In this document: piece by piece, positions 9,133 to 48,542 of the stretch
How positions within the stretch are numbered: the stretch's first letter is position 1
Layout: each line of letters opens with the position of its first letter
Source of the DNA: a virus
Taxonomy: Duplodnaviria; Caudoviricetes
Virus record (IMG/VR): IMGVR_UViG_3300042465_002123
Span: 1 to 56,208 of that record
Strand: one strand, 5' to 3'
Length of the DNA: 56,208 nucleotides
Program-made: the position numbers and the translations under genes
Notes under the pieces: generated by a model
Told to the model about the DNA's origin: nothing
Seen by the model: the letters and a program-made list of their open reading frames with translations, nothing else
Database searches by the model: none

Positions 9133-9879
9133 TTACCAGCAAGACTTTTTAACTTTTCCACCAAATGCTTTTTTCTCGATCATGCCTTCCGGTAACTTGT
9201 TACCCGGCTTGTAAGCGTAGTCGCGGTCGCCCCTGCCAATAGCTTCGCGTTCCGACGCAATAGATTGGCGAAGTAGCTCCCCTTTGGACTCGTACTCTTT
9301 TGGCCCGGGGGATGTATCGCCGGGGCGCCTTAAAAAAGGAGTTAAGTTTAGCGCGCCTGAAACATAAGACTTCACTTTTGTTGAAGTTTTGCCGTGTTCT
9401 TTTTGGTCTTCTTCCAGTCTACGAAGACGACTCATATCAGTAGCCGAAGAGACTGCGCCGCCTTCTTGTTTCTTTACGGTTTTGGCTGATTGCTTGAAGG
9501 CTTCAGCCGTTGGTGCACCTTTGCTGCCAGCTCGACGCATTTTTTCGCCAGAGCCTTCAGAAATTCTTTGACGTTTTGCATGAATATTTTCATAAAGTCC
9601 GCCGCCTTTCATTTTCTTAGACGAAAACAATTTATCAACCATTTCTAACCTCTGAGGTTTAGTTGTTACATCGTTGATGATGTCTATGCGCTCTGCTTTA
9701 TTTTTGCCTGCTTCATAGAACCCGGCTTTTTTTAAAGACTTAACTACACCGCCGGTTTTCATCTTCTTGTCCGCAGCCACAAATTCCTTGCCCACCTTCT
9801 GTGGGACGCCACCAAAGCCGCCTTTGGTATGGGCGGCAGCTTCCATCAGACGGTGCTGGGCAGGTGATTTACTGGGCAC
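9133..9879 (-). CDS. Basic modular protein with four xxGG motifs (putative internal head protein / polyprotein)
   Basis: 248 aa. MKTGGVV, MKGGGLY, KQEGGAV and KAFGGKV separate Lys-rich segments. Confidence 0.7.
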   Translation of the reverse strand: MPSKSPAQHRLMEAAAHTKGGFGGVPQKVGKEFVAADKKMKTGGVVKSLKKAGFYEAGKNKAERIDIINDVTTKPQRLEMVDKLFSSKKMKGGGLYENIHAKRQRISEGSGEKMRRAGSKGAPTAEAFKQSAKTVKKQEGGAVSSATDMSRLRRLEEDQKEHGKTSTKVKSYVSGALNLTPFLRRPGDTSPGPKEYESKGELLRQSIASEREAIGRGDRDYAYKPGNKLPEGMIEKKAFGGKVKKSCW

Positions 9880-10114
9880 TTTTCATCTCCATCATGCGGT
9901 CGAGCTTCTCGCCCAGCTTGTCAATCCGGTCGAGCACGCGGTTGATGTCCGCATGCACCTCAGCCTTGGTGACGTACTCCTTGGCGACTTCTTCGCGGGT
10001 ACGGTTCAACAGGATCGTGACGCGCTGAAGCTCAGCGGCCTTTTCCCGCAAGATCCAACCCAGCACCGAAGTTGCCATGGTCAAGCCCGCGATCCATATC
10101 GAACTTAGTTCCAT
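9869..10114 (-). CDS. Small protein with N-terminal hydrophobic helix and coiled coil
   Basis: 81 aa; hydrophobic residues 5-21, then EEVAKEYVTK..RIDKL..KLDR. Confidence 0.65.
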   Translation of the reverse strand: MELSSIWIAGLTMATSVLGWILREKAAELQRVTILLNRTREEVAKEYVTKAEVHADINRVLDRIDKLGEKLDRMMEMKSAQ

Positions 10115-10117
10115 GGT

Positions 10118-10897: not shown

Positions 10898-10908
10898 GAT
10901 GTTTCCTT

Positions 10909-10934
10909 AAAAAAGTGGGGGCCGGAGCCCCCAC
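10909..10934 (-). terminator. Intrinsic terminator
   Basis: GTGGGGGC-CGGA-GCCCCCAC hairpin with an A6 run on the + strand (U-tract on -), right after the stop at 10937. Confidence 0.8.
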
Positions 10935-10936: not shown

Positions 10937-12070
10937 TTATCGCTTAGCGCTACCGCCCCGTTTACGGGCCATAGGAGGGTTGATAAACCCCCTGCCGGCT
11001 CCCGCTTCGGGTTTGATGCCAAGTAGCTTCTTGATCGCGGAGTACGCTGTGCTTGGGGCGTTACGAATTGTGTTCGCCACGTCCATGTCATCAGCATACT
11101 TATCGCGAGTAGTTGCGTCATAGGCACCTTTGGTCATGTCCCTTGTCATCGAAGAAGCACTTTGAGGCATTGCATCTTCTAACCCACCGCCGGCAAATTT
11201 CCCTACCTTGCCACCCTTTTTAAAGGTGCCAGATTGGGCAGTGTTGCTGACAGGCTTGGAGACAGGGTGCTCAGGCATTGCTACGGCGCGGCCAGCGTTA
11301 TTAACACTGCCCCCCGTAGCGAAATGCTTTTTTGCAGCACCGCCTTTTTTGTAGCCGCCGCCGTTGCCCAGCTTCACATCACCAGTTGGTGCAGAGTTGG
11401 TGTCCGCCTTGGCCGTGCTCATCTTGGTGCTGCCCTTTTTGGACATGATGATGCCGCCTTCTTTGAAGCCGCCCTGACCGTTCACAACGCCACCAGTGGC
11501 GTAGTTACCGGGCTTTGCGGACTTCATGATGCCGCCGGTCTTCAACTTCAACGAAGTACCTTTGCCACCCATGTGCTCTTGCGCGTCATGCTGCTTGAAG
11601 GCCTTTTTGATCATGGCCTTGTCTTCAGCTGTGTCGCTGGCTTTGCCGCCTTTTTTCATGGCAGACATGCCACCCATAGCCGGAGCTGCGGGAAGGGCAC
11701 CAGCAATCGCTGGACGAGTGCCACGGGCTTTCATTGCGCGAAGCATTGCGGCCTTGCGCGGGTCCATCATGCCACCCATAGGAGCACCCATCATGCCGCC
11801 CATGGCCTTCTTGTCTACTTTGCCGCCCTTTTTGGAGTTCAGCATAGCGCCCGACATAGCCTTGCGGCGTTCAGACATTGAAGGTTTTTGGGGAGCGCAA
11901 CCGTCTTCAGCAGCATCTTCGGCCTTGGATGACATGAAGGCTTTACCCTTCATGTTCATGTGACCGTCAGCGTCCTTGTGCTCGGAAGCAACGTGACCAC
12001 CTTTTTTGAGCTTCAGAATAACTGAAGGCTCAGTGGTCTCCATCTTCACCATTGGTTTGAATTGACCCAT
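10937..12070 (-). CDS. Lys/Met/Gly-rich protein with about 12 xxGG repeats (putative internal capsid protein)
   Basis: Start moved to MGQFKPM (12070), which has an AGGAG RBS. Motifs: LKKGGHV, SKKGGKV, KAMGGMM, MKKGGKA, LKTGGIM, YATGGVV, FKEGGII, YKKGGAA, FATGGSV, FKKGGKV, FAGGGLE, RKRGGSA. Confidence 0.75.
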   Translation of the reverse strand: MGQFKPMVKMETTEPSVILKLKKGGHVASEHKDADGHMNMKGKAFMSSKAEDAAEDGCAPQKPSMSERRKAMSGAMLNSKKGGKVDKKAMGGMMGAPMGGMMDPRKAAMLRAMKARGTRPAIAGALPAAPAMGGMSAMKKGGKASDTAEDKAMIKKAFKQHDAQEHMGGKGTSLKLKTGGIMKSAKPGNYATGGVVNGQGGFKEGGIIMSKKGSTKMSTAKADTNSAPTGDVKLGNGGGYKKGGAAKKHFATGGSVNNAGRAVAMPEHPVSKPVSNTAQSGTFKKGGKVGKFAGGGLEDAMPQSASSMTRDMTKGAYDATTRDKYADDMDVANTIRNAPSTAYSAIKKLLGIKPEAGAGRGFINPPMARKRGGSAKR

Positions 12071-13128: not shown

Positions 13129-14043
13129 TTAGATACCCGGCGTGCCGTAAGCGGCGCGTGGGTCTGTAAAGCCAACGTCGTAACGCTCAGTGGCCTTGTA
13201 GCGCATAGAGTCGGTCTCGAAATCACCTTCCATGGTTTTCTCGAGGCGACGACGCATGAGCAGCTTAAAGCCTTCTGGTGCATCAGTCTGAACCCAAAAC
13301 GCAGTAGGGCTGGTCAGACGGCTCAGAACAGCAGCGCCCTCGTCCAACAAACCAATGGATTTCACTGGGTTGATGTCGTTGTTGGCGTTGCCGGTGCGCA
13401 GAACCGATTTCAGCAGAACTTCAGCTTGGAAGATGTTGCCCGGGGCGACGATCAGCTGGCGTGGCACCAGACGGATCTTCTTGCCGTTGTTGTCAACGGC
13501 TTGACGCACTTGGATCAGCATCTGCTCGAGCGAGGTCTGCGACAGGTTGGCAGCAGTAGCCAACTGGTTGCTGAACACGCCGTTCACAATTGGGTGCGAA
13601 GTGCTGATCAGCGGCACGCCATCACCACTGTTCGTGGTGTTGGTGAACGCTGTGTTCAACACGTTAGCCGACAGCAGTTCTTTGGTTTCCACCAGAGACT
13701 GTGCCAGATGGCGTGCATACACTTGGCCCAAACGGATGTGATCGCCGTCTTCCACCAGCACTTTGGTCAGGGCAAAAGCCAGACCGTAGACGCGGTAGAC
13801 GTAGCGCTTGAGGAACAACACACCACCTTGTTGGTACGTGACCGGAGTGCCGTCAGGCAGCTGAGGTGCAGCACCGAAACCGTACAGGACGGGTTCTTCG
13901 TGGTAGTTGCGTGGGATGCCGTCTTCTTGGCGGAACACACGGCTCCACTCATCGGCGCGTTGGTCGTAAACACCATCGAAACATTCGTTCAGGATTGGTT
14001 CAACAATCGAACGAAAGTCCGTACTTCTCATTGGAGCAGCCAT
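13129..14043 (-). CDS. Major capsid protein (HK97 fold, Mu gpT-like family)
   Basis: 304 aa. GFGAAP..PDGT.V.Y, YGLAF.LT...VEDG, GDGVPL.S.SHP, P.QLIV.P, DFETD.MRYKA.ERY..G..DPR..YG. Followed by a terminator. Confidence 0.85.
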   Translation of the reverse strand: MAAPMRSTDFRSIVEPILNECFDGVYDQRADEWSRVFRQEDGIPRNYHEEPVLYGFGAAPQLPDGTPVTYQQGGVLFLKRYVYRVYGLAFALTKVLVEDGDHIRLGQVYARHLAQSLVETKELLSANVLNTAFTNTTNSGDGVPLISTSHPIVNGVFSNQLATAANLSQTSLEQMLIQVRQAVDNNGKKIRLVPRQLIVAPGNIFQAEVLLKSVLRTGNANNDINPVKSIGLLDEGAAVLSRLTSPTAFWVQTDAPEGFKLLMRRRLEKTMEGDFETDSMRYKATERYDVGFTDPRAAYGTPGI

Positions 14044-14669: not shown

Positions 14670-15215
14670 TTAGCCGGCAAATACCGGCGGGCGATTGGAT
14701 TGCTGATCTACAAAATTACCCATTCCCTCGCCTTCAACTGCTACCAGCGACTTGCCATTGCTGTCCCTTGCACCTTGGAGTTGCTCAACTTGGACGCGGA
14801 TTTTGTCCGATTCCTCGCGGGGCTTGTCGTAGTGCATGTGCGTCATGAGTTCTTGGAAAACATCCATCGGCAATTTGAACAGCAACATTTCGTTGCAGGA
14901 GATGTAGCCAACATGCTCACCGGCCTTCACTCGATAGTCTTCATAGCCGGGTAACTCTTCCGATTTAACGGGTACGTACCCTAGCCGAATCCGCTTATCA
15001 ATGGAGTCGTAGCTGTTGGTTGTTGAAAGCCAGCAGAGATGCCACCCATTTAGGCTGGGCAGTTTAGGCAATGCTGATTGCGTCCACTCTTCGCTCCACA
15101 TTTTCTTACGTTCCTGCGTCGAGATGAACTTATCTTCGGGGGCTGCACGGCTAGCGTCCTCATTACGAGTTTCGCGATTGCCGGCGTTCAAAGATTTCTT
15201 GAGGCGTGATTCCAT
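14670..15215 (-). CDS. Conserved head-module hypothetical protein
   Basis: 181 aa. LP..P...GWHLCW...R.RLGY.PV...EMLLFKLP pattern; lies between scaffold and capsid genes. Confidence 0.7.
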   Translation of the reverse strand: MESRLKKSLNAGNRETRNEDASRAAPEDKFISTQERKKMWSEEWTQSALPKLPSLNGWHLCWLSTTNSYDSIDKRIRLGYVPVKSEELPGYEDYRVKAGEHVGYISCNEMLLFKLPMDVFQELMTHMHYDKPREESDKIRVQVEQLQGARDSNGKSLVAVEGEGMGNFVDQQSNRPPVFAG

Positions 15216-15217: not shown

Positions 15218-16174
15218 TTATCGTCCTTGGTTGGTGCGGTCATATTTAATAAAGTTCGCGATCATTGCTTTCTTGCGCTCAGGGTTGTCCCACGCACCAG
15301 CATCCTTCATGGCCCGCACCCTTTCAGGTGAAAGCGTATAAGTTGTCCGGTTCGTGCCCCCGTATGCGGCTGAAGCCTCGCGTCCTGAACTGCCCACAGT
15401 ATTCCTCGGTGATCTAACGGAATCATTCCTGTCAGATGACTTATTATAGTGATGTGGCAAGCGTTTCTGCAAGCGGTTGTCAAGTTCGTCCCAATAATCC
15501 TCTGTACCGGGGTTCCAACCCTCCGCCACCAAGCCCTCGTCGATCAGCTTGGCGATCTTGCTGTCGGTGTCGGAAAGGTCGGGTTTGTACCAGTTATTGC
15601 GCTCAATCCATGTAGCCGCGTTGCGCTGCACGCTGGGGTCAATACGGGGCGCTTCTGCCCGTGGTTGGCCGCTTTGCTTCTTCATGTTTGTCAACTGCTG
15701 GAGCTGCTGACGGGTGTCAAACATCAACTCTTGCGCGCTAACCGCAGCTTCGCCGTCGCCTGCGTTTGTAGCCTCGGCCAACTTCATGCGCGCATACTCC
15801 AGCGCGACTTGTTTGTCCTCGATGGCTTTGTTTAACTGACCCATGTCTTGGGCTTGGGTGCGCTGCTCAACGCTGGACAGCCGGCGTTTGAACTCGTCGT
15901 TCTCGCGGCGAAGCATTTGCAGTTGAACGTCTTTTTCTTCGTTGGTTTTGCGAATGAAGTCCTTTTTCGACCTGCGGCGAGCGCGTCGGGCTGCGCGCAC
16001 TGCCTCGGTGTCATCGGGATGGTCGTCGTCGCCTTCTGGCTCATCCGCCTTGGCCGCAGGGGTTTGATCCTCGTCGTCGTCCGGCGGGACCATGCCCTCG
16101 GGCATGTTGATGGTTGCGGTGCCGTCTTGGCCCTCTTCGACGTGCATTTCGTCGTCTTTTGGTGCTGTTGCCAT
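15218..16174 (-). CDS. Putative scaffolding protein
   Basis: 318 aa. Acidic N-terminus, coiled coil, W..RN.W and YWDELD.RL, basic C-terminal helix; position upstream of the capsid genes. Confidence 0.7.
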   Translation of the reverse strand: MATAPKDDEMHVEEGQDGTATINMPEGMVPPDDDEDQTPAAKADEPEGDDDHPDDTEAVRAARRARRRSKKDFIRKTNEEKDVQLQMLRRENDEFKRRLSSVEQRTQAQDMGQLNKAIEDKQVALEYARMKLAEATNAGDGEAAVSAQELMFDTRQQLQQLTNMKKQSGQPRAEAPRIDPSVQRNAATWIERNNWYKPDLSDTDSKIAKLIDEGLVAEGWNPGTEDYWDELDNRLQKRLPHHYNKSSDRNDSVRSPRNTVGSSGREASAAYGGTNRTTYTLSPERVRAMKDAGAWDNPERKKAMIANFIKYDRTNQGR

Positions 16175-16183: not shown

Positions 16184-16645
16184 TTAAACGTAGGCTTTGA
16201 ACGACAGCGGGTCATCGGTGACTCGCGCAATCAGTTCGTGGTCATTGATAGTCATGAACAGCACAGGATCTTCCATGCCGTCCTCCCCCGGAACCGGGCG
16301 TTCCCAGCGGTCGCCACCCCAGCGGGGTACGCGGACATAGTCACCTTCGTTAGCCCAGCTACCTTCAGGCCATGAGGCCATCGTGTCGCGGTTCTTGAAT
16401 GCCAAGGGGCCAACTGCAATAACTTTGCCGATCATGTTGTTCCACTTCTCCGCTTCTTTGGTCTCGGAAACCAAAATAATCCGACTGCCGGAGGCAGTCT
16501 TCTTAATGCGTCGAAGCTGGACAATGATGCGGCCACCAAAGGGTGCTTGACCCGGGTTTACGTCTGGAAATGCCCATGCCAATTCGGCAGGATCAGACGC
16601 GCCTTGACTACCCTCGACGAGGGTAATTTTATGCTCTTCACTCAT
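16184..16645 (-). CDS. GroES/Cpn10-like co-chaperonin
   Basis: Start MSEEHK with an AGGAG RBS. PFGGRIIVQ..KKTASGSRIIL..GKVIAVGPLA..GDYV...INDHELIARV matches the Cpn10 pattern. Confidence 0.85.
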   Translation of the reverse strand: MSEEHKITLVEGSQGASDPAELAWAFPDVNPGQAPFGGRIIVQLRRIKKTASGSRIILVSETKEAEKWNNMIGKVIAVGPLAFKNRDTMASWPEGSWANEGDYVRVPRWGGDRWERPVPGEDGMEDPVLFMTINDHELIARVTDDPLSFKAYV

Positions 16646-16663
16646 ACTAACTCTCCTAACTAA

Positions 16664-16702
16664 AAACCATATTTCAGGTTTGACGTGCGCATATTTCAGC
16701 GC
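16664..16702 (-). promoter_or_regulatory. Twin stem-loops with an identical UGAAAUAU loop in the groES-like leader
   Basis: Minus strand reads GCGC-TGAAATAT-GCGC (16702-16687) and AAACC-TGAAATAT-GGTTT (16681-16664). Confidence 0.6.
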
Positions 16703-16721
16703 GGCTTGGGGCCTTGCGGCC

Positions 16722-17057: not shown

Positions 17058-19541
17058 TTAAACTCCTTCAGGTGGCATAAATGCCGGTTGGTTAAGCGAT
17101 TCGTGCGCCATTCTAGCTTGCTCAATCTGTAACTTGGCTTGATTGTTTATCTCAGCAATCTGTAACTGCAAATCGTTGTCGGCTTGCGTTTCCTGAGCCT
17201 TGGCCTGCATTTGGGCTTGAGCGCGCTGCTGGCCGTCTTGCAGCTTGGCTTGGGCAATCTGCCCGTCCTGCTGGTCCTTGGCGGCTTTGCGCTGGGTCTC
17301 GGCCATGGCGGTGTCTTTGACAACCTGAGCGTCGGGCGGCAGCTGGGGCTGGGGCTTGTTCTGCTGCATGATCTGCGTGAGCTGCTGGAGCTGGGGCATG
17401 ATCTGCGCAAATACCTGCTCGCTGTCCAGCGCAACGTGCTGGCCGACGGTGGCGTACAGCTTGTCAATGGTCGCCGTCAGGGCTGGGTTCTCGTAGTCGT
17501 CCACCGGCTTGCCGCGCAAGTTTTCCACGTAGCCGTTCATGCGGTTCAGATACCACAGCGTCATGTGCTGCTTGATGTGCTCCACCGCGTTGGGCAGGAA
17601 CTGGGGCGCGATAAACGGGTTGGCACCAAAGGACGGGTCCATGCCGAACATCAAGTGGCCTTGGATGTGCGCGATGTGGTCCTGCTGCATGTAGGCATAC
17701 GCAGTGTGCCCGATAGCCATGGCCGCGTTCTCGTCGGCCAGCGTGCGCTGCTCGGGGGCTGGCACGTTCTTGAGCAGCTCGTCGACATTGGGTATCTTGA
17801 GCTGCTTGAGGAAGCGCTCCTCGACAGCCTTGGCCTCGTACAGGTCAGGTTTGGAGTCCGCACGGGACAGCACGGCCTGCATCTGCGCCATGCGCTGGGT
17901 CTCGCTGAAGATGTGCGGGTCGCTGACCGGGATGACATCAGTGTTTTTCAGGAAGTCATCGCGCTCGATTTCAAGGTCCGCGACCATGTCGCCCTTGCGC
18001 ATCTCGTCAAAGTGCCAGCGGTTCAGGCGGCAGAGCACTTTAATCAAGCGGGCTTGCGACTGGTGCAGGCGCGCATGGATGGCCGAGTAGACAGCAGCGC
18101 CTTGCTCGATCAGGGCCTGCGTGGTGCCCACAGGGGCGTTGGCGTTGACATCGGCGATCTTCTCTTCACTGGTAGTGACCACGCCCTTGGCCGCGCTGTC
18201 CAGCCAGCCAAGCAGCTGGAACAGAACCTGCGACGGTGGGTTGAACGGCATCGGCATGGCAATCTTGCGGATGTCGTCCACGCCGGGTGCGCCCTCGATC
18301 TCGGCCACCTGAGTGACCTCGATCTGCTGGGTCTGGCCGCTGATCTTCGCGCCCTTGAGCTTGAGCATGGTAGCGGCGTTGTTGATGTGCGCAGAGTCCA
18401 GCAGGGCCCGCAGGGAACCCGTCAGGGCCGCGCTCAGGCCACCAATGAGGTGAGGTAGCCCGATGGCAAACACGCCGCGCCACGGGATGAACTTGAATTC
18501 AATGATCCAGTCCAGCTTGTCCATGGTCTCGTCGCCCTCTTCCCAGTTACGGTAGAGGCCGATGACTTCATTGCTTTGCTCGTCCACCATCATGATGTAC
18601 GGAGCCATCTCGCCCTTGGAAAACTTGTCTTCGTTAAATTCCAAATGGGTGTAGATGTGGAAGACCTTGCGCAGGCCGTCCTCGTTGTCTTGGAACTTGC
18701 GGCCCTCGATCTTGTCGTTGGCCTTCTGGGCGCGGCTTTGCTCGGGTTCCATGGAGGTGGCAAACGAGCCGCCTTCCTTGTACATGCCGTTGGTCACGCG
18801 CCGGTTGTATTCCCACTCGGTAATCTCGTGGACCTCGGCCATGCGCTGGGCCGTGTAGAAGTTCGATGCCGCAAACGGCAAGATCACGCGGTCAATGGGC
18901 AAAAACTCGATGACCGGGCGCTTCTTCTGCTCGTCGTACCAGAGCTTGAGATACTGCGAGCCGCCCAGCGGCAGCTGAGTCAGCATCTGCTCTTGCTCGT
19001 CGCGGAACTCTTCGATCTGCTCGGTAATCTGCCAGTTTAGGAAGTCCCGCTTGCGCTCAGCGCGCTGGGTTTTCAACTCGTCAACAGCGCCAAGGATCTT
19101 GGTGCGGACGGGGCCGTCTGGTGGATACAGCTCTTTGATGGCACGGGACGCAAAGTCCACGCAGCCCTCGGCCATGACCGGGTGGACGGCGCGGCTGGCG
19201 CCCATGAAGTTCGCGCCGCCGGGGGCGTCCTTGCCCAATCCGGTGCGCTTGAGGCCTTCCTCGTACTGTTTGTCGCGCTCCTCACGGGCGTTCTTGTCCT
19301 TGTCTAACAGCTCGATGTAGCGCATCGCCAGCGTGTCAAGGTCGTGGCTGTCCGTGTTTTCGGCCATGTTCGCGTAGAAGTCGGGAGACTGCTCGGGGCC
19401 TTTGGTTTCCATGTCCACAATGACCGAGCCGTCCGGCATCTCGGTCAGCTCAGTAAATTCCTCGTCCAGATCAACTTCGGCCGAGCCGTCCTCGTTGAGG
19501 GACTCGTCGGGCAGGTTCTCGTCGTCTTGGGGGTTCATCAT
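17058..19541 (-). CDS. Portal protein
   Basis: 827 aa. GASRAVHPVMAE..VDF.SRA.KEL.P..GPVRT.I.G, L..LPL.GS.Y.K.WYD, Gln-rich C-terminal barrel; position after the terminase. Confidence 0.88.
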   Translation of the reverse strand: MMNPQDDENLPDESLNEDGSAEVDLDEEFTELTEMPDGSVIVDMETKGPEQSPDFYANMAENTDSHDLDTLAMRYIELLDKDKNAREERDKQYEEGLKRTGLGKDAPGGANFMGASRAVHPVMAEGCVDFASRAIKELYPPDGPVRTKILGAVDELKTQRAERKRDFLNWQITEQIEEFRDEQEQMLTQLPLGGSQYLKLWYDEQKKRPVIEFLPIDRVILPFAASNFYTAQRMAEVHEITEWEYNRRVTNGMYKEGGSFATSMEPEQSRAQKANDKIEGRKFQDNEDGLRKVFHIYTHLEFNEDKFSKGEMAPYIMMVDEQSNEVIGLYRNWEEGDETMDKLDWIIEFKFIPWRGVFAIGLPHLIGGLSAALTGSLRALLDSAHINNAATMLKLKGAKISGQTQQIEVTQVAEIEGAPGVDDIRKIAMPMPFNPPSQVLFQLLGWLDSAAKGVVTTSEEKIADVNANAPVGTTQALIEQGAAVYSAIHARLHQSQARLIKVLCRLNRWHFDEMRKGDMVADLEIERDDFLKNTDVIPVSDPHIFSETQRMAQMQAVLSRADSKPDLYEAKAVEERFLKQLKIPNVDELLKNVPAPEQRTLADENAAMAIGHTAYAYMQQDHIAHIQGHLMFGMDPSFGANPFIAPQFLPNAVEHIKQHMTLWYLNRMNGYVENLRGKPVDDYENPALTATIDKLYATVGQHVALDSEQVFAQIMPQLQQLTQIMQQNKPQPQLPPDAQVVKDTAMAETQRKAAKDQQDGQIAQAKLQDGQQRAQAQMQAKAQETQADNDLQLQIAEINNQAKLQIEQARMAHESLNQPAFMPPEGV

Positions 19542-22390
19542 TTGACCTTTTTGGTGAAGTGCTTGGCACTCATCAGCTCGTACATCATCACGTCCTTGTC
19601 GGGGGATACTGTAACTCGTTCTTTAATTATGCCACGCGAGATGGGCTTGATTGTTTCACGTGAAACCATGCCGCCATGGGCCAATACCTTGCGGGCCACG
19701 ATGCCGTGCCCAACATCGCGTTCCTGTTCATACCGCACAGGATCAGATAGGGGGTACAAGTGCTTGGTGTTGCCGCCAATATCAAACGCTGATCCTTCGG
19801 GCACGTGGTGCTTGTCTTCCAGCGCCCGAAACTTTTGCTTGTTGACCACCGTGGGTTCACCGATAGTTACCTCGCCAATTGCTTTGGCCTTGCCCTCGCC
19901 CGTTCTGACAATAGCCACTCGCTTGCCCACGTAAGGCCGCAAAGTGTCACTGTTACGGGACTCAAAAGTCTTGTGGCCGTCCACAATCATGTCAGCATAC
20001 TTGCGGTCTGACTTACGGTCTGAAGCCACATTAATGCCCATTACAGAGCCGCCATCAGCGTAGGTCTCGCGCTTGCCGTAGGTGGGCTTGTGGGCCAGCA
20101 CCAGCGGGCCGATCTGCACAACGTGGGCCGAGTGTGTGACCGGTTTCAGGGTCTTGCGGTCGTAGAAAAAACCATGGCGCCGGGGGTCCATGCCCACCTG
20201 AGCGTAGTCCGGGTTGTTCAGGTGCTCTTTCATGTGCTCCACCGCCTCGTCCTCGGTCATGTGGTGCAGCTCGCCCTTAATACGGGCAAAAGGTGACTTG
20301 TTTTGCTCGCCAGTGGCAACTTTGATTGCTTTTTCGGGGCCGGCGTCAAAGGTGGCGTTTTTTACGGACGAAACAGGGGCGTAAGAGGTCTTGAGCTTGT
20401 CGCCCTCGCGGCCTTCCTCGTCGTGGATTGAATTAACCCACACGCCGTGCTGCTCGTAAGCTGGAATGTCCAGCCGCAGGCCCACTTTTCGGCCGGCAGG
20501 CCACTTTGAGTGACCACGCCACTGCGGCTTTTTGTTCTCCATCAGCGCCCGGTCAGCATCTTCGTCCGATGCAGGCTGCGGGACAAAGTCGTATGGCTTG
20601 ACCGGCTTGTGCTTTTTGACCACGCGGTCGTATTCCTTGCGGTCGATGGCGCCAGCTTGCAGCGCCTTGGCTGCGGCCTCCATCTCAGGGATCTTGCGCT
20701 GGATCGTTTCGTCCTTTGTCGTGGGTCGAACTTCAACCTCGCCACCGCTTTTGTACAGCGGGATGCCGTTCTTCGTCACGTCCTCGCGCATCTCAGGGGT
20801 GATTGGGAAGCTGTGCAAGCGCTTTGCGTTGATGTCGTCCAGCTTGGCGTGAAAGACATCTTTTTCCTCCCGCGACATTGCAGCGTAGTCTTGCGGGCTG
20901 ACTCCCAACTTCATGGCGGTATCGCTGCGCCCGTTTGGGTCACCCGGTATCTGGACCTGCCCAACCTGCGCGCCGTACTTCTTGCCGAACTGGTTCAAGA
21001 ACTTGGGCACCATCTTGTCGTAGAAGCCCTTCATGCCCTCGCCACCCACGTCAAGGTTTGCGTTGTCAAGGTAACGCTCGCCTTTCTTGTCTGGCTCCGT
21101 GCTTAGCAATTTGTTTGCAAGCTCTTTACCAATGTGGCTTTCCAATTTCTCTGGAGTCACTGTGTCATCAACCACCCTTCGTTGATTTTTATCATAGGCA
21201 ACATAGTAATAAGGGTGGGTGTCTTTGTTTGGAAATTCGTTTGGATATAGCTCAATGCGGTCAATATGCTTTGCCAAACTGTACCGCTTGGCCTGCTCCT
21301 CGCCCGGTGTGATGGCGATGGAGTCGTAGCCCTTCTCGGCGGCGTGCTGGATCATGCGCTTGAGCGCCAGCTCGTGCCAGTTCTTCTTGTACGGGGCGTC
21401 GGGCACTCCGCTTTGACTGAACATTCGCTGGTAATCAGCTTCCGCTTCATGCCGCGCTTGATCGGCCTTCATGACTTGCGGCATAAGTTCCATGATCTTG
21501 TTGTTGTGGAACCGCAGTTGCGATTCGTATTCAGCTCGTCGCGGCGTAGTTACGCTACTATTTTCCGGGTCAATTGCTCCAAGCCGGTCGCTCAAAGTGT
21601 TTGACCAACTCTTAGACTCTTGCAAATCGTTTTTTACCCGTATGTGCGCAAACTTGGCTTGCTGTGCTCGGCCATACGCGGCATCTATCAGCTCTTGGTG
21701 GTTCTTAGGAAGGTAGCCCTTCTCGCGGCCGGTCTGGTGCCAGTCCGACTGAATCTCCTCAAGGTGCAGAATCTTCTCGCCGTTGGGGCCGGTGCGATCC
21801 TTGACGCGGATGCTGGCAAGAATGTCAGGCTCATCGCCAAAGTGCCCGCCCAAGCCCTCAAAGCCGCCGTTTTGGGGGTTGGGGTGCTTGAGCAAAATCT
21901 CGCGGTAGTTGCTGCCACCGGGCAACGTCCACTCCTCGTGATGCGTTGGCCCTGCTTTAAAGCCAGACTTTTGCTCGACCTCACGCCTAAAACTCTCAAA
22001 ATGCTCCGGGCGGGATGCGCGCATCCGTCTCATGGTTTCATTTCGTATTGCGCGAGCTTCGCTGCTGCTTTCGGCATTTTCGGCTTGAGTTGAGGCGGTC
22101 TGCCTGATGTATTGATTAACTTGCTTGTTTACTGCTTTAAGGGAAAAAGGTTTCCGCTCGCCCAATACCACCTCATCCGGTTTTGTAACGCGCTTGGCCC
22201 TGAGCGCCTTGAGAAAGTCCTCACGCGCCATCTTGGGCAGGGCCGTGAGCGTCTGCAAGTCGCGGTCCTCCACCTCGGCCTGCTTGTAGCCGGGTTTCTT
22301 GCTCAGCTCGGTCATGAACTCAGCGCCCGTGCCCTTGGGCCGGGTCAGCTCACTGGCAAGCCGGTCGATGGGGGAGTATGCGTTTCTCAC
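19538..22390 (-). CDS. Large modular (polyvalent-type) protein: EEIQSDW domain + unknown domain + ASCH/PUA-like domain
   Basis: 950 aa. Domains are delimited by YKSGGEV, YADGGSV and LAHGGMV. ASCH signature YADMIVDGHKTFESR...VGKRVAIV...AIGEVTI. Confidence 0.7.
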   Translation of the reverse strand: MRNAYSPIDRLASELTRPKGTGAEFMTELSKKPGYKQAEVEDRDLQTLTALPKMAREDFLKALRAKRVTKPDEVVLGERKPFSLKAVNKQVNQYIRQTASTQAENAESSSEARAIRNETMRRMRASRPEHFESFRREVEQKSGFKAGPTHHEEWTLPGGSNYREILLKHPNPQNGGFEGLGGHFGDEPDILASIRVKDRTGPNGEKILHLEEIQSDWHQTGREKGYLPKNHQELIDAAYGRAQQAKFAHIRVKNDLQESKSWSNTLSDRLGAIDPENSSVTTPRRAEYESQLRFHNNKIMELMPQVMKADQARHEAEADYQRMFSQSGVPDAPYKKNWHELALKRMIQHAAEKGYDSIAITPGEEQAKRYSLAKHIDRIELYPNEFPNKDTHPYYYVAYDKNQRRVVDDTVTPEKLESHIGKELANKLLSTEPDKKGERYLDNANLDVGGEGMKGFYDKMVPKFLNQFGKKYGAQVGQVQIPGDPNGRSDTAMKLGVSPQDYAAMSREEKDVFHAKLDDINAKRLHSFPITPEMREDVTKNGIPLYKSGGEVEVRPTTKDETIQRKIPEMEAAAKALQAGAIDRKEYDRVVKKHKPVKPYDFVPQPASDEDADRALMENKKPQWRGHSKWPAGRKVGLRLDIPAYEQHGVWVNSIHDEEGREGDKLKTSYAPVSSVKNATFDAGPEKAIKVATGEQNKSPFARIKGELHHMTEDEAVEHMKEHLNNPDYAQVGMDPRRHGFFYDRKTLKPVTHSAHVVQIGPLVLAHKPTYGKRETYADGGSVMGINVASDRKSDRKYADMIVDGHKTFESRNSDTLRPYVGKRVAIVRTGEGKAKAIGEVTIGEPTVVNKQKFRALEDKHHVPEGSAFDIGGNTKHLYPLSDPVRYEQERDVGHGIVARKVLAHGGMVSRETIKPISRGIIKERVTVSPDKDVMMYELMSAKHFTKKVK

Positions 22391-25300
22391 AGTGGCCGCT
22401 CCTCAAGGCTGATGTCACCGACCCGTCCGCCCCGGGCCATCACGCGGCCCTTGATAGCCGACTCGGGGATATGGAACTCGGACGAATCGTCGCCCTGCTG
22501 GTACCGGACGTGGTAACCCGGCTCATACGGCGTGCGCATGGTCTTGCCGGTCTGCGGGTCCTTGCGGGCCTTGAGCGTTTTTTCATCCACCACCGGTTGA
22601 TTGCCGTAGGCTACGCGCCGGATGATGGTATACGGGGGCTTGTTCTTCTTGGCACTGTCGTCGGTAAACACGCGATGACCCGCGTCGTACTTGAACGGCA
22701 TTGACTCAATTAAATCCTGCATATTTGCTGCGCCTTCGCGGACTCGATCACCCAGCGAGGTGTGGAAGTCCTGCATGTTGGTCAGCTGCTTGTTGGCGAC
22801 CACGGGCTCCTTCATGCCGGACGACTTGGCTGCGCCGGCGATGGCCCTGCGCATCTCCTCCACCGACGGGTTGGTCGAGCCACCGCCGGCCATGCGCGGC
22901 ATGCCGGGTGGGGTGGCGCGCATGGCCGACATGGCCTGACCTTGTGGCGTCAGCTGGAGGATGTTGCTCTGCGGGCCTTGGGGCATGCCCTGCGGGGGCT
23001 GGCCGAATGTACCTTGGGGTGGCATGCCTTGAGGGGCTTGCGCGTCCTGTGGGGGCTGTCCAAGCTGCCCTTGGGGCATGGCCGGCAGCATCTGGTGGCC
23101 GGGGTTCTCGGGCTGGAAGTCCACGCCGCCGACGGGCATGCCGCCGGCGCCGGGTGGCATGTACAGCTTGACCGGCATGGCTGGGGCCTCCTCGACGCCC
23201 ACGTTGGACGGCTTGACGCCGCCGCCATCGGCAAGGTACTGCATTGGGTCGGTCCCGGGCATGTCCGATGGGCCTCCTTCGTAGTCGCCGAAGTCGGTGG
23301 AAATGCCGTTGGCCGCGTCGGGTGCAACTGGACCGCCTGCTGCCTTGTGCAGCATGACATGGGCCAGCATCTCGTCGGGGTTGGTGGACATGCGAACTTT
23401 GGTGCGGGGGCGTTGACGGTGGTGTGCCCGACCGCCTCGCTCCTCCATGTCAGCGCGCAGGGCAAGGTGCCGCTGGGAATGGTAGTTGCGCTCGGGGAAT
23501 GCGTGGAAGTCGTCGTCGCCCAGCCCGCTGTCGTCGCGGTCGTTGTACACGCGCCCGCCCTCAGCGTAGAACTTGACGGGCTGCGGTGGCACGTACTCTT
23601 TGCCTGCGCTCTTGATCTGCTCGCTCGGTGCGTCGATCTCGTACTCGCCCTTGTTCTTGAGCGCGTGCTCGACGTGCTTGGCGTTGACGTGGTGGGTGAA
23701 CGATGTCTGGTGCCCAAGGTTGCTGGTTGACTCGGTCGGCGTGGTCATCAAGAGGTGGCCGGCCTTCTTGCCGTTCTTGGTCATAAAGCGGTTCTTTGGC
23801 AAGAACTCCTCGTCCTTGAACCGGGAGTCGGTCGGGATCATGTGCGGCGTGCCATCGTCGTTCTTGCCCACTTGCACCAGACGCGGGTGCAGGATGTGCT
23901 GCTTCTGGTAGTCAAAGCGCATGTCCTTGAGCGTGGTGTGGCCGAAGTGCGCCTTCTCCGGCGTGGTGGGCTTGCCGTTTGGCCCAAAATGACCCTCTGG
24001 GCCTTCAGCCTTCTCATCCTCGGTCAACTCGCTTTGCGGCCGGCCGGTGGACCAGTACTTGCCGTGGGTGATGGCCTTTTCCATGTTCTTTGCCAGCGGC
24101 GATCCGCGCTTGACATCAGTGACCATGTACGAGCCCTTGGGCGGTGTCAGGTTGCCCTGCTCGTTCTTGAAGTCGCCCTTGTTGTCAGCGGCCATCACGG
24201 TGTTGCGCACGCGGGATTTGTCGCGGGCGATGTTCTCGGCGATGGATGCGCCCTTCTTGGTCTTGGGGCCGACGTTGGAGTGCGTGACGTAGTAGCCGTT
24301 CTCGGGGTCGTGCAGCTCGTTGGTCTTGCCGTATGAGTTGGCAATGATGTCCGGCTTGTCCTCCATCCTGCGCTGCTCGTTCAAGTGCCGGATGGCATGC
24401 CGTGAGGTGACGTCGGTCTCGTCCACCACGTTGGGGCGGAACAGCAGACGCTCGTTGTTCTTGTCGGCCATGCGCGCTGCGTTGCGCAACGACCCGGTGT
24501 GTGCCAGTATCCAGTCCTTGGTCATGGCCGGGTCGTGCTTGGCCTGCTCGTGGCTGGCCCGACGCACGGCAGCGTTGACGTACTGCGCCTCCGCGTTGGG
24601 TGCGAAGCATGTGCCCTTGCTGGTGTCCACGATGCCGTTGGTATCAGTGCCGCCGCCGCAGCCCACGGTCTGACCGGGGCAGGTGTTGACCACGTGGTGC
24701 TTCTCGTTCTCACCTTGGCCCGATGTGTACAGGGAGTGGCCCGCCACGCCTTTGGACGCAAAGCCCACATGGGTGCGGCCCTGCTCGTCGTGCTCGTGGC
24801 GCACGGTGTCGAGCTTCTCGGACTTGTCCAGCGTGTTGGCGTTCTTGCCGATGTGCTTGGCTGCGCGCAGCCGTTCCAGCGCGCTTTCCTCATCGGCATG
24901 CTGCTGGTCCAGTGGCTTGGCAAAGTGCTCGGCCAGTGTGGCCCGGTGGATCTTGCCGATCTGGCCGAGGGTCAATGGGTCGCGGTTCTCGGCGCCGTAC
25001 ACCTTGGCCCGTGCCGCGTTGACGTCCTGCATGCCCTCGACCTTGCGACCGCCTTCACCCTTGTAGGTCTTGCCTTCCCACATGTGGCGGGGGACGACGA
25101 TGCCCTTGACACCGCCCGGTCCCTCGGCGTCAATCTTGACGCGGGTTGACGGGGTGCTCGCCTTTGCGGCCAGTTCGGCACGCATCTGGTCGGGGGTTGG
25201 GGTATCGGCCATGGTTTGGTCCTTTGAGGTTGTCTTGTCATTATCGACAGCACCGCCGTCTTTGTACGGCACTTTTTTACGCTGAGCGGTCCTGTTGTCG

Positions 25301-28082: not shown

Positions 28083-28131
28083 AAAAACTCCTGTAGCGCA
28101 TCTTGCAGCGCGTTGGCCGGAGTTTAACTTA

Positions 28132-45201: not shown

Positions 45202-45211
45202 GATTTATTCC

Positions 45212-46426
45212 TTAAGAGCCGTCGGCTAGATCCCAATTGATATCTGGCATACCGCCGCCGCTGTAGTCGTAATCCCACCAATTGCCGTTAAGATCAGGGT
45301 CGCTATCAGAATTAGGATTTGCGGGATTTGTGCTAGGGTTGTACGGGTACGGAAGGATGGTGCCCGTATTAATATTGCCGCCTGACCCAGACCCAAAACC
45401 TTTAAGAAAGGCTGCAAGGTTGTCAACAGGCGACTTACCGTCTTTTGAGGCAAACGCGCCCAAGCCCAGCGAACCGAGACCGGCGATCATGGACAGCGGC
45501 GAGCCCGTCATGGTTTGAGTCGTGGTCATCGGCAGCTGCGCGCCGGACATAATGCTGGCCTGCTTGCCGAGCACATCCAGCGGCATGAGCTGCCGGTTCT
45601 GCGCAAGGGTTTGCTGCTGCGCACCGACGTTCGCCAAGGCTTCCACATCGGCCAAGCCCTGCTTCTGTTCCTGAGCGGCTAAGCCGGCCTCGGCGGTGCC
45701 CACATCGCGGTACAGCTGGCCCTGTTGGGTAGCCATATTGCCGGCCACTTGACCAGCGGTAACTTGGTTGGCGTTTGCAGTGTTCTGCAAAGTGCCGGCG
45801 GTTTTAGCAGCCTCGAGTTGGTTCAAGCGCTGCTGCGCAGCCTGCTTCATGGCGTCGGCATAGCCGGTCTGCAAGGCCGTGGCCTGCTGGCCCAGCGCGC
45901 CAAGGTTGGCGTTTGAGATGCCCAGTGCAAGGGCATCGGCCCCGCGCTTGGAGCCAAACTGCCCGCCACCCACCGCACCGGCTGTAATGCCGGGTGACAG
46001 GTTCTGCGCAATGTTCTGCTGGTTTGCCATCCGAATCTGGTCCACCACGTTCTGGGTGTACGGATTCATGTAGTTGCCCACCAGATCGGCCGAGCTGGAG
46101 GTGCCGCTTGTCAGGTACGGATCAGCAACGGAAAGGCCGCTGGTGGTTGTACCGGCGGTCAGGTAGGGTTGAGCCGTACCGGAGATGTCCGTGGCCCCTG
46201 CTCGTCCAAATGTTTCGCCCGCTTTGGCAAGACCGGGCTGGTAGTTGCCGACGTTCGCACCTACGTTGGTGAAGGCTGCGGTTTGATTGGCATTGGGGTT
46301 CCACGCACTAGGGTCCACCGCAGCGCCTGCCGCCGTGCCTTTGGTGGCGAGGTTCGTCAGGTAGTCGGTGTAAAACGAAGGTGCTGTCGTCGCCGTTCTT
46401 GCGGACGACTGGGTTAAATCAGCCAT
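45212..46426 (-). CDS. Putative DNA-pilot / ejection protein
   Basis: 404 aa, Gln/Ala-rich. YMNPY.Q.V, A...G.FGS.R, SPLS.IAGLG...LG motifs. Confidence 0.6.
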   Translation of the reverse strand: MADLTQSSARTATTAPSFYTDYLTNLATKGTAAGAAVDPSAWNPNANQTAAFTNVGANVGNYQPGLAKAGETFGRAGATDISGTAQPYLTAGTTTSGLSVADPYLTSGTSSSADLVGNYMNPYTQNVVDQIRMANQQNIAQNLSPGITAGAVGGGQFGSKRGADALALGISNANLGALGQQATALQTGYADAMKQAAQQRLNQLEAAKTAGTLQNTANANQVTAGQVAGNMATQQGQLYRDVGTAEAGLAAQEQKQGLADVEALANVGAQQQTLAQNRQLMPLDVLGKQASIMSGAQLPMTTTQTMTGSPLSMIAGLGSLGLGAFASKDGKSPVDNLAAFLKGFGSGSGGNINTGTILPYPYNPSTNPANPNSDSDPDLNGNWWDYDYSGGGMPDINWDLADGS

Positions 46427-48542
46427 ATTTCTTGCCTTTCGGGGACTTCAGATATTCTAACGGGGACTTGGCGTCCGGGGGTAACTTATCTGGCGGCGCT
46501 GAGCGGGCGCGCTCACGGATGGCCTTTACCATCTCGCCCAAACGATCCGCGCCGGCTTTGTTGGAGCCGTTGCCCAGTGCCGACACCACATCGGCGCTGA
46601 AAACATATTCACCGTTCGCCAGCATGGCCGAGATATCGTCGCTGGTGCCGTCGCCCTTGCCCTCGACATACCGTCCGCCCAAGCCTTCCAGCCCGCCAGT
46701 GCGGAACACAGGGGTGCCGTCGTAGTTAGGGTGGTGGGAATCCGACGGCTGTCCACCTTCGGCAAGGGTCATCCCACGGGCTTGCAGCAGGGCTGCGAGG
46801 CGCGGCAGGACCTTGGGTGAGTACGGCATGCCGGCGTCCCTTACGGCCCGCATATTGTGCTGCGGAGGCTTGATATCGGCGCCGATAGCGCCAAGCTCCT
46901 TGAGCGCTTTTGCCATATCGGCCGTCGCGTACTGGCTCTCCAGCTTCTTGACGGATTCTGCGACCGCGTCCCCCTCGGCAAAATGTTGCACAAGGCCACC
47001 TTTTGCTGCATACAGCGACGGGTACTCTGTGGGCGCATACACCGGTGGGTACTCGGTAGGCAGGCCCATGCCGGCAAGCATGGCTTTGTTGACATCGACC
47101 GTTGAGGGCGCCGTGTCGGCCACGTACTTGTATTCCGGGTCCAAACCCTCATCGAGGTTGAGTGCTTGTAGTGATTTTTGCATTGGATCAGTTTCCATTT
47201 TTCCGGTCGTCTTATAGCCGCCTCTGGGCGTAGTGGCGGTAGATCCTCCGGTCAAGCCGGAACCCCCTCCTCCGCCGCTTCCCATCAGCGCGGCCAAGGC
47301 AGCAAGACTCAGCCCACCTAAGTTAGAGCCGCCCGTGCCGCCCCCGGTGGTGCTTGACACATTACCAAAATCGCCGGACTGCACGCCCCCGCCGTCTCCG
47401 CTGCTGCCGCTGCTTGGGGTAGAGCTACTGGGCGAGGTTGCGGCGCCGCCGGTGGGCACACCCATGCCAGATAGCACCGAATCGAGAAAACCGGAAAGTG
47501 AGCCTAAGTTTGACGAGGTAGGGGTTCCCGTAACGGAATTGACCGCGCCGGCGATCTCACTGCCAAGGCCCTTACCAACGCCGCTCACATTCATGCCCAA
47601 TCCGACAAGCCCCGGATTCACCCCGGTAGCGCTTGCAATAGCGCTGGTCAACGCTGAATTTGCCGTATTGGCGGCAATTTGCCCGTAGTCCCCGTTGATC
47701 ATTCCCGAAATAACACCTACCGGAACGCCTAATTGATTTGCCGCTACGGCCAGCCCAGCGCTAACGGCTGTCTGTCCTACCGTTGATTTTCCAGAAAGTA
47801 AACCGCCAGCAATATTTGTAAGTGTGTTAAGTGTGCTAAACCCCGGGACCATGAGGCCTACAACAGTCGGGGCGTACTCGTTCATGTAGCCGTGAAAAGC
47901 CTGCGCGGCAAGAGCTTGATCTACGGTTTGGTCAAAACCGGGAACATCCATTGCCCCAAGGCCCAAGTCTGCTAGCCCCTGCAATTCAGCGTAAGACATA
48001 TTTGGGCTGTGCATCCCCGATAGCATTGACCCACCCACCTGCCCAGCGGGGGTTTGCGCTGTTTGAGGCGACATACCAATCATGGCCGCGTCTATCTGAG
48101 CGGGGGTCATCGTGGACGCAAGCGGGGACGCGTTGGCGGCAACCTGAGCATTTAAGTTCGCTGCATCAGTAATTTCAGCATTTTGAGCGGCTACGGTTTG
48201 GTTGTCATTGGAAACAGCAAGACCAGCGGCTTCATTGTTAGCATTAATAGCATTTTGAGCGGCAACGGCTTGGTTGTCATTAGAAACAGCAACGCCGGGA
48301 TCAGCCGCGCTTAGCCCCGAAGTAGGTCCCGTGGTGCCGTCGCCTACAGCAGCCCCTTGAGCCGCGTCGGCAGCAGCAGCGGCAGCAGCATCAGCGGCGT
48401 TGGAAGCGGTTTCACCGGGGTCGCTAACACCGTTGGAGTCAGTAGCTGAGCCGCCGCCGTCAAAATACATGGCAGGCCAATTGATTTTGCGTTTTTTACG
48501 GGACTTGACGCGCTCAAGTCTTGAGATGATGTCGTTCTTCAT
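46419..48542 (-). CDS. Putative ejection protein with xxGG motifs and a C-terminal GDGTSDDI...GEYV domain
   Basis: Start MKNDII (ATGA overlap with the queC-like stop). Motifs YFDGGGS, AAKGGLV, FAEGDAV, LAEGGQP, FRTGGLE; C-terminal VEGKGDGTSDDISAMLANGEYVFSADVV. Confidence 0.65.
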   Translation of the reverse strand: MKNDIISRLERVKSRKKRKINWPAMYFDGGGSATDSNGVSDPGETASNAADAAAAAAADAAQGAAVGDGTTGPTSGLSAADPGVAVSNDNQAVAAQNAINANNEAAGLAVSNDNQTVAAQNAEITDAANLNAQVAANASPLASTMTPAQIDAAMIGMSPQTAQTPAGQVGGSMLSGMHSPNMSYAELQGLADLGLGAMDVPGFDQTVDQALAAQAFHGYMNEYAPTVVGLMVPGFSTLNTLTNIAGGLLSGKSTVGQTAVSAGLAVAANQLGVPVGVISGMINGDYGQIAANTANSALTSAIASATGVNPGLVGLGMNVSGVGKGLGSEIAGAVNSVTGTPTSSNLGSLSGFLDSVLSGMGVPTGGAATSPSSSTPSSGSSGDGGGVQSGDFGNVSSTTGGGTGGSNLGGLSLAALAALMGSGGGGGSGLTGGSTATTPRGGYKTTGKMETDPMQKSLQALNLDEGLDPEYKYVADTAPSTVDVNKAMLAGMGLPTEYPPVYAPTEYPSLYAAKGGLVQHFAEGDAVAESVKKLESQYATADMAKALKELGAIGADIKPPQHNMRAVRDAGMPYSPKVLPRLAALLQARGMTLAEGGQPSDSHHPNYDGTPVFRTGGLEGLGGRYVEGKGDGTSDDISAMLANGEYVFSADVVSALGNGSNKAGADRLGEMVKAIRERARSAPPDKLPPDAKSPLEYLKSPKGKKYG

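Follow-up and report, generated by a model that had tools for sequence, protein, structure and literature searches.

The window analyzed in this work is the whole of virus record IMGVR_UViG_3300042465_002123 (Duplodnaviria; Caudoviricetes), 56,208 bases with a completeness estimate of 94%, which holds most of its genes on the minus strand and a replication block on the plus strand. Five of the minus-strand genes had been singled out in an original prediction, made from the nucleotide sequence alone, as sharing a double-glycine motif that might act in polyprotein processing or capsid loading. Designated here by their lower coordinates, they code for a 248-amino-acid (aa) chain of small basic modules with motif-like GG sites (9133..9879), a disordered-looking Lys/Gly-rich head protein of 377 aa (10937..12070), two large proteins of 950 aa (19538..22390) and 1237 aa (22387..26100), and a Gly/Ala/Ser-rich protein of 719 aa (46419..48578) whose membership in the set is doubtful. 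The shared element is very probably a short linear motif of the form hydrophobic-[A/K]-x-G-G-x-[V/I], selected at the protein level, which lies in flexible linkers and marks every module joint.

To count the motif we used a strict pattern, [YFML][AK].GG.[VI], and a relaxed one, [YFML][AK].GG, with 2000 composition-preserving shuffles of each protein as background. The five proteins (3,553 aa together) hold 13 strict sites, distributed as 1, 5, 3, 4 and 0 over genes 9133, 10937, 19538, 22387 and 46419, against a mean of 0.10 in the shuffles, and 13 was reached in 0/2000 of them; the other 52 open reading frames (ORFs) of the window (14,206 aa) have none, with 0.34 expected. The relaxed pattern occurs 20 times in the five proteins (2, 9, 3, 5 and 1; 1.33 expected) and is not enriched in the other ORFs (3 sites versus 3.16 expected), and a rule asking for two of three features yields 21 sites (2, 9, 3, 5 and 2). 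The motif is therefore far above chance, but the earlier count of about 30 was inflated. Likewise, four of the five named proteins carry the signal, but the product of 46419 is not enriched when taken alone: it has no strict site and a single relaxed one, against 0.46 expected, a number matched by 749 of the 2000 shuffles. Among GG dipeptides, Y/F/M/L at -3 combined with A/K at -2 was found for 17/63 in the five proteins and 1/157 elsewhere (Fisher p=1.5e-9). The five proteins share no other similarity, which upholds the original statement; the best pairwise BLASTP match has E=0.083, and several of the weak pairwise alignments center on the motif. A useful internal control is the 959-aa product of 1235-4114 (minus strand), probably a fiber or spike, which is 24% glycine and combines two Gly_rich_2 regions with a SPRY domain at its C-terminus. 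It contains 46 GG but only 2 relaxed sites, both YAGGGGG.

As the pattern had been defined on these same proteins, sequences outside that set were needed, and two independent sets were assembled: 120 metagenomic homologues of the 950-aa protein and 80 related viral loci (1.08 Mb, 1,186 ORFs). The single 1237-aa protein, used as a query for related loci, found no relatives, and alignment A1 was needed instead. The homologues hold 270 strict sites against 2.2 expected, with at least one site in 113/120, and the loci hold 295 in 139 ORFs against 5.85 +/- 1.9 expected. We then left the +2 residue out of the selection and collected 615 distinct sites by [YFML][AK].GG alone. At this unselected position V accounts for 56%, A for 12%, I for 9% and T for 8% (1.82 bits), and the flanks outside the seven residues stay below 0.5 bit. 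In protease notation, the hydrophobic position P5 is Y in 43%, M in 27%, L in 17% and F in 13%, A or K stands at P4, and V is conserved at P2'. The residue directly after GG is polar in most copies (S 23%, K 17%, A 12%, E 9%), with a depletion of Pro (1.3% versus 6.6%) and of L/F/Y/W (4.2% versus 13.0%). The codons used at the sites differ (GGC/GGT/GGG/GGA for Gly, TAC/TTC/TTT for Tyr/Phe and GCC/GCT for Ala), so conservation acts on the protein rather than on a DNA site, and a DNA-level signal was ruled out.

The 950-aa protein is the clearest case of a motif at each joint (all motif coordinates given in this work are on the minus strand). It comprises an N-domain (residues ~160-545), a conserved middle domain (553-776), an ASCH domain (796-867; Pfam, 1.2e-06) and a 41-aa C-terminal tail. 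YKSGGEV (residues 546-552; 20735..20755) joins the N-domain to the middle domain, YADGGSV (777-783; 20042..20062) the middle domain to ASCH, and LAHGGMV (903-909; 19664..19684) ASCH to the tail. The conserved tail of this family, SRETIKP..VTVSP.D.M.YELMS.KHFTKKVK (19541..19663, minus strand), stands after the last motif in every case, irrespective of the module in front of it, and has K923, V926, T927, S929, P930, D933, M935, Y937, E938 and K950 as invariant residues. In the 80 related loci, tblastn matches to this protein end at query residues 550-562 in 46 cases, 778-786 in 9 and 909 in 3; thus 58/80 end at one of the three motifs, and 11 others reach the protein end. Matching pieces in phages by tblastn end at residues 766-784. 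AlphaFold2 predicted the N-domain with a pLDDT of 70-95, dropping below 50 at 546-567 and from 774 on (mean 58); the model is informative only for the linkers relative to the N-domain. SMC/Rad50 heads, suggested by a Foldseek comparison of this model with the PDB (3e-3, TM <0.2, no match at E<=0.001), were dropped as a candidate. A PDB sequence search with both large proteins gave no match at E<=1, and a segment-wise Pfam scan of them (E<=5) returned only ASCH and a weak GP88 match.

That GP88 match falls in the 1237-aa protein, which is laid out as an N-terminal region, a conserved GP88-like core (residues ~304-844), a stretch rich in P/Q/G/M and a C-terminal domain. Residues 304-917 are 70% identical to an 890-aa protein of MW202545, the only syntenic record in the phage collection searched. 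Five to six motifs punctuate the protein. YKDGGAV (residues 279-285; 25246..25266) lies just upstream of the conserved core and YAEGGRV (845-851; 23548..23568) at its end, where FYAEGG is kept in relatives. The relaxed KAAGGPV (919-925; 23326..23346) follows a copy of a tail-like segment, KVRMSTNPDEMLAHVMLHK, located internally at about residues 900-921. LADGGGV (956-962; 23215..23235) comes next, then the relaxed MAGGGST (1070-1076; 22873..22893) between the P/Q-rich stretch and the C-terminal domain. The last, MARGGRV (1221-1227; 22420..22440), leaves only a short tail, GDISLEERPL (22390-22419), before the stop codon, in the same way as relatives of this upstream protein end in a motif and ..DYIxITERPL before the stop. 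Together with the three joints of the 950-aa protein, this agrees with the predicted location of the motif between domains and near C-termini. At 22387-22390 the two large genes overlap, the 1237-aa gene with its stop and the 950-aa gene with its start. Counterparts of both are fused in P0052, P0062, P0084, P0097 and P0104, and fused proteins in some genomes have 1,500-1,650 aa. As several metagenomic relatives are one fused ORF with permuted modules, gene fission or fusion occurs at a motif joint.

The family of the two large proteins has at least 967 members in the protein collection, with modules swapped among them. Homologues contain ASCH, ART-PolyVal, LPD23, GNAT, GDSL lipase and PcfJ-like modules as well as HExxH segments, and the order of modules is permuted between genomes with the joints retained. 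The original prediction had asked whether domain swaps break at the motif, and they do. In an all-versus-all BLASTP of the 120 homologues, 49.3% of the 17,475 internal ends of high-scoring segment pairs (HSPs) lie within 5 residues of a motif, as compared with 3.9% for random positions, and the median distance from HSP end to motif is 6 aa versus 83 aa. Counted from the first Gly, HSP starts concentrate at -3/-2 and HSP ends at +1 to +5. The effect size counts for more here than any p-value, because the protein pairs are related and not independent. Where a Pfam match covers the whole domain, domains in homologues have motifs on both sides at a distance of 9-42 aa; ART-PolyVal at 741-891, for instance, is preceded by YADGGRV at 719 and followed by KAKGGAV at 901. 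By their domain architecture, the two large proteins are assigned to the polyvalent-protein class as defined by Iyer et al. 2017 (PMC5512222), the names ART-PolyVal and LPD23 being themselves taken from that work. ASCH and two other conserved domains stand in one polypeptide, the architectures of relatives vary, and the proteins are phage encoded, between the large terminase and portal genes. No MuF or metallopeptidase Pfam match and no HExxH was found in the polyvalent proteins of the window, HExxH segments occurring in some homologues.

For the Lys/Gly-rich protein, homologues beginning with MGQFKPMVKM place the start of the gene at 12070 and bear out the originally predicted bounds, 10937-12070. 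Its composition is 13.5% K and 14.5% G (on a 399-aa reading), and it has 5 strict and 9 relaxed motifs. All 21/21 homologues in related loci carry the motif, with 1-7 strict and 3-16 relaxed sites at only 33-57% identity, and in their alignment the motifs are invariant columns amid indel-rich linkers. L-K-K-G-G of LKKGGHV (11990..12010) and K-x-G-G of the relaxed motif MKKGGKA (11639..11659) are invariant in the family. A cluster at 11177..11545 (LKTGGIM, YATGGVV, FKEGGII, YKKGGAA, FATGGSV, FKKGGKV and FAGGGLE) belongs to a longer repeat, TGxVKxGNxGG[YF]KxGG, whose copy number differs between genomes. In the ESM Atlas the protein matched unnamed clusters only (best score 0.89). A complex prediction of the capsid protein with residues 229-300 of the Lys/Gly-rich protein gave no answer (score 0.00 against a mark of 0.32, run without controls) and is evidence neither way.

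The sites of the 248-aa protein are MKTGGVV (9742-9762), MKGGGLY (9592-9612), QEGGAV and KAFGGKV (9151-9171). Its PHROG matches are to families of 50 and 58 aa; its first 51 residues match an ORF of 52 aa in Stenotrophomonas phage BUCT555, and residues 94-138 match ORFs of 48-50 aa that marine Autographiviridae have between their scaffold and capsid genes. A peptide chain that occurs elsewhere as separate ORFs of 48-52 aa fits a polyprotein as judged from sequence, and to this extent the polyprotein proposed originally gained support; terminal and tandem copies of the motif argue against a pure cleavage role. Together, 8878-9129 and 9133-9879 (minus strand) encode small, very basic proteins or modules that also occur in marine T7-like phages, as tiny ORFs placed between scaffold and capsid genes, and several such proteins end in ..C..W or ..NW. 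These proteins or modules may be DNA-associated internal peptides.

The product of 46419-48578 is probably an ejection protein. Its motif-like sites are YAAKGGLV (46989-47009) and LAEGGQP (46746-46766), and its counterpart in MW202545 has YASGGCV-like sites, which lends weak support to its inclusion among the carriers. Residues 634-712 resemble proteins of MW202545 and Caulobacter phage proteins annotated as "tape measure," and the C-terminal segment ..DGTSDDISAMLANGEYVFSADVVSALGNGSNKAG.. is present in two copies in the MW202545 counterpart. The neighborhood at 42389-46426 looks like an ejection-protein block, because its equivalent in MW202545 ends in an SLT transglycosylase.

The distribution of the motif in the 80 related loci bears out the prediction that it is a shared signal of head-region proteins. 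Most of the strict sites fall in 111 polyvalent ORFs (165 sites) and in the 21 Lys/Gly-rich homologues (85). A further 31 are in ORFs that have no homologue in the window, 18/20 of these carriers being other ORFs of 850-1,370 aa. Seven were found among 42 scaffold-like ORFs, without exception in the acidic N-terminal part (e.g., ELLAEGGEVEPKK), four in 5 homologues of the 248-aa protein, and three in 33 homologues of the 14060 product, where the 3 carriers represent 2 distinct sequences. The scaffold-like homologues (37 distinct) also have 9 relaxed sites in the N-terminal acidic region. Terminase, portal, capsid and tail proteins do not have the motif. Even relaxed sites number zero in distinct homologues of the terminase (72), portal (56) and capsid protein (23), and also in distinct GroES-like (33), 14670-family (29) and small terminase (52) ORFs. 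YKEGGSF in the window's own portal, already set apart as an isolated match, is accordingly a chance one. Outside this phage group, the cultured HMO-2011-type Roseobacter phage CRP-207 has the motif in gp58 (YAEGGSV at 411, FAEGGTL at 426 and MKDGGLA at 930), MW202701 has it in the giant protein following the portal, and MW202675 in three giant proteins and a 382-aa Lys/Gly-rich protein; a Pelagibacter phage homologue of the N-domain lacks the motif. As to position within carriers, 10/276 strict sites are at most 12 residues from the C-terminus and none is within 12 of the N-terminus. Motif copies at extreme C-termini include FKKGGKVNW, YHARGGVAK and YRTGGKVK, each directly before the stop. Tandem copies 8-15 residues apart are common.

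The genome around the carriers has several landmarks. The large terminase (26147..27565, minus strand; Pfam Terminase_6N/6C; motif-free) adjoins an Sf6-type small terminase (27558-28211). The portal (17058..19541, minus strand; phrog_1216) and the genes between it and the Lys/Gly-rich protein are also on the minus strand: a GroES-like gene (16184-16792; phrog_3188, 2.8e-05; Pfam Cpn10 at E=0.0019, below the cutoff), a scaffold-like protein with an acidic N-terminus and a predicted coiled coil (15218..16174), a conserved, motif-free protein of 181 aa (14670..15215) and the 304-aa major capsid protein (13129..14043; Pfam Phage_capsid_4, 1.6e-11; motif-free). The GroES-like gene, whose real start is probably an internal Met about 50 codons into the ORF, is found in 37/80 related loci and in MW202675. 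More distant landmarks are an SU10-type adaptor (52440-53078) and an M15 endolysin (53118-53546) adjoining a holin. A QueC-like gene (48539-49186, minus strand; Pfam QueC, 1.5e-11) among the structural genes is a hint that the DNA is modified with 7-deazaguanine. For the capsid gene, at least 6,909 of 8,000 scored candidates are relatives, the best 120 at 92-97% identity, and these numbers in metagenomes point to a very abundant group of uncultured freshwater phages. The capsid protein is 86-97% identical across loci and metagenome proteins, against 33-57% for the neighboring Lys/Gly-rich protein.

We tentatively favor a processing site as the function of the motif, at somewhat less than an even chance. 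According to this reading the carriers would be precursors that are packed in the head and delivered with the DNA, and the motif would be the place where they are recognized and cut, either in the head or once they have been ejected. What would be released are many small basic peptides and enzyme-like modules, namely ASCH in this phage and those of ART, GNAT, lipase and metallopeptidase-like type in relatives, and the conserved C-terminal tails beyond the last motif would act as the packaging address, those of the 950-aa family and of the upstream protein being our candidates. The presence of the window's polyvalent proteins in virions and their delivery are inferred from gene position and from a precedent in phi24B, in whose virions a 2811-aa polyvalent protein (gp47) is abundant (bioRxiv 10.64898/2026.04.10.717836). 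The position at joints, the peptide chain of the 248-aa protein and the sharing of the motif by unrelated head-interior proteins, scaffolds included, would fit cleavage, as would the depletion of Pro and bulky hydrophobic residues after GG. So would a need to separate modules with different targets, as argued by Iyer et al. 2017 (PMC5512222).

A number of observations weigh against cleavage. The family scans covered 40 window ORFs (Pfam), 20 (PHROGs) and ten head proteins (NCBIfam, 0 families), and in agreement with the original prediction none recognized a prohead protease; outside the capsid gene the M15 endolysin is the only peptidase family, the "protease" matches in PHROGs landing on the capsid protein itself. 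HExxH is likewise missing from all window ORFs. The capsid protein shows neither the motif nor a propeptide-sized extension, its profile match starting at residue 6, and the head module of CRP-207 contains only the portal, the polyvalent gp58, a scaffold-like gene and the coat. Conservation extends over both sides of GG, from P5 to P2'. Some copies stand 3-12 residues from a C-terminus or in tandem, so that cutting there would achieve little, and the scaffold copy is single, near the N-terminus and missing from the window's own scaffold. The breakpoint counts rest on pairs of related proteins that are not independent of one another, and no proteomic data for any carrier were found in the literature searched. 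Autoproteolysis of the SEA or another type was rejected, as the position after GG varies and is seldom occupied by a nucleophile.

The 181-aa product of 14670 is the only unassigned candidate in the window for an enzyme or receptor. Encoded between the scaffold-like and capsid genes, it belongs to a family of 434 representative relatives of ~180-220 aa at E<=0.001, with G57, H59, W62, D70, R75, G79, Y80, E109, M110 and H128 nearly invariant. Its profile gave no match in the PDB with A2 and one at E=0.34 with A4. Pfam returned only DUF4816 at E 0.03 or worse, PHROGs phrog_36003 (function unknown; 40/107 members) and the ESM Atlas unnamed viral clusters only, and the predicted structure (pLDDT 54) was unusable.

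Part of the evidence that speaks against cutting is what a docking or cohesion element would produce, a reading we regard as possible, with a lower probability than processing. Each copy would bind weakly to a component of the head interior (the inner surface of the capsid, the portal or the scaffold core) or to itself; carriers would be recruited and held without any cleavage, and the Lys/Gly-rich protein, with up to 16 copies, would be a multivalent glue. Conserved islands in variable disordered linkers, 3-16 relaxed copies of which are kept at 33-57% identity, tandem and extreme C-terminal copies, the longer repeat of the Lys/Gly-rich family and the confinement of the motif to head-interior proteins all point this way, and a bound strand or hairpin would be in keeping with residues conserved both before and after GG, V at +2 among them. 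However, no partner was identified; the carrier groups share no BLAST-detectable capsid protein, and a portal is shared by one only. Moreover, stand-alone small basic modules in other phages lack the motif, and the conserved C-terminal tails of the polyvalent proteins are better candidates for an address. Docking and cutting could also be combined, such that the flanked modules are held in the head and then released by an unrecognized Gly-Gly-specific protease, for which the 14670 family or a domain within the polyvalent proteins would be a candidate; we consider this two-in-one code unlikely. Rather unlikely, too, is a passive joint, that is, a favored hinge or tight turn that allows independent folding and passage through the tail and is kept through in-frame recombination between copies. 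It would account for motifs placed exactly at recombination breakpoints and in low-confidence linkers, for permuted modules with retained joints and for the fission or fusion of the two large genes directly after a motif. Yet a hinge needs no specific Y/F-A-x-G-G-x-V, and, as codons vary, there is no long DNA identity to guide recombination. A passive joint would also leave unexplained the 5-17 copies in a protein free of modules, the N-terminal copies of scaffolds and the C-terminal copies.

The mobile loop of GroES carries a similar ..A-G-G-I-V-L.. turn, and the motif might recruit a universal host partner such as a chaperonin, or a host protease might cut at it after ejection. Its presence in phage groups with dissimilar head proteins favors a conserved host partner, a GroES-like protein is encoded in the head module, and some copies read GGIV, GGIM, GGII or GGVV. 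Nonetheless, the residue after GG is mostly polar, whereas the GroES loop has a hydrophobic triplet; the register is another one, with A at -2 and not -1; and the head module of CRP-207 has no GroES-like protein. We therefore consider a host factor improbable. To a chance or composition artifact of Gly/Lys-rich proteins we assign next to no probability. The pattern was admittedly chosen after viewing these proteins, and one of them, the product of 46419, is no richer in it than shuffles, but no shuffle reached the observed counts, homologues and loci repeated the excess 50- to 120-fold, and both the GG context and the near absence of relaxed sites from the Gly-rich fiber protein rule such an artifact out.

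The distribution of the motif resembles, by analogy, that of a prohead-protease motif. T4 gp21 cuts at L/I-x-E and the enzymes of phiKZ and SPN3US at S/A/G-x-E. In those systems a short motif, comparable in its distribution to the one described here, is common to the scaffold, internal or ejection proteins and small internal peptides, and it sits at borders between propeptide and mature protein; they differ in that a protease gene is identified, the capsid protein is cut and the motif ends in Glu, whereas here no protease gene was recognized in the ORFs scanned, the capsid protein is motif-free and the motif is built on Gly-Gly. A Gly-Gly specificity is known from the clan CE proteases of adenovirus (adenain) and African swine fever virus (pS273R), which cut after Gly-Gly with a hydrophobic residue upstream and release core proteins and small basic DNA-associated peptides inside the capsid. 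These, however, are eukaryotic viruses that encode a clan CE cysteine protease, a family that Pfam did not detect in the 40 ORFs scanned, and their consensus, (M/L/I)-X-G-G|X, has the hydrophobic residue at P4, whereas here it is at P5 and accompanied by a conserved P2' Val. The double-glycine leaders of C39 peptidases are also Gly-Gly processing signals, but they are N-terminal, belong to exported peptides, have another upstream consensus and are cut by an ABC-transporter domain; our sites are internal or C-terminal, and no C39 or ABC transporter domain was found in the 40 window ORFs scanned with Pfam.

Among loading signals, the capsid-targeting sequence of T4 and encapsulin cargo-loading peptides are likewise short portable peptides that bring unrelated cargo into an HK97-fold shell, those of encapsulins also being rich in small residues with hydrophobic anchors. 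They are single terminal tags, in contrast to a motif that is internal, present at every joint and repeated up to 16 times, and the conserved C-terminal tails described above look more like classical tags than the motif does. Polymorphic toxins offer a parallel for the border itself, since VENN in CdiA and PxxxxDPxGL in Rhs are short peptides at which modules are exchanged, and the Rhs delimiter doubles as a cleavage site. In these secreted bacterial proteins one delimiter precedes one C-terminal toxin; here every joint of phage head proteins is marked.

The closest relatives remain the polyvalent proteins, likewise large late-gene products that string together unrelated conflict-type domains, and for which packaging, delivery along with the DNA and processing into units have been proposed, the last by an embedded zincin-like metallopeptidase (Iyer, Burroughs, Anand, de Souza and Aravind 2017, PMC5512222). 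The present proteins differ in having each module bounded by a fixed joint of 7 residues, which head proteins that are not polyvalent have as well. In the main text of PMC5512222 the terms "glycine," "linker," "spacer," "disordered" and "boundar" have 0 occurrences each, and no description of the junction motif was found in the literature searched; supplementary alignments may show it. The motif is strongly conserved and, it seems, has not been described before in what is a known kind of protein.

If the two-in-one code were true, the polyvalent carriers would be true bacteriophage polyproteins, and the Lys/Gly-rich protein would be the precursor of many small DNA-condensing peptides, in parallel to the maturation of the adenovirus core. 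If the motif is a loading or release signal, it could be used for loading chosen proteins into phage heads. In the biology of these phages, the motif explains how modules are swapped freely among the carrier proteins. Polyvalent proteins are regarded as the first phage weapons injected, and for the question of how they are packed, delivered and separated into units the motif gives a concrete handle, because it predicts exact sites of cutting or contact.

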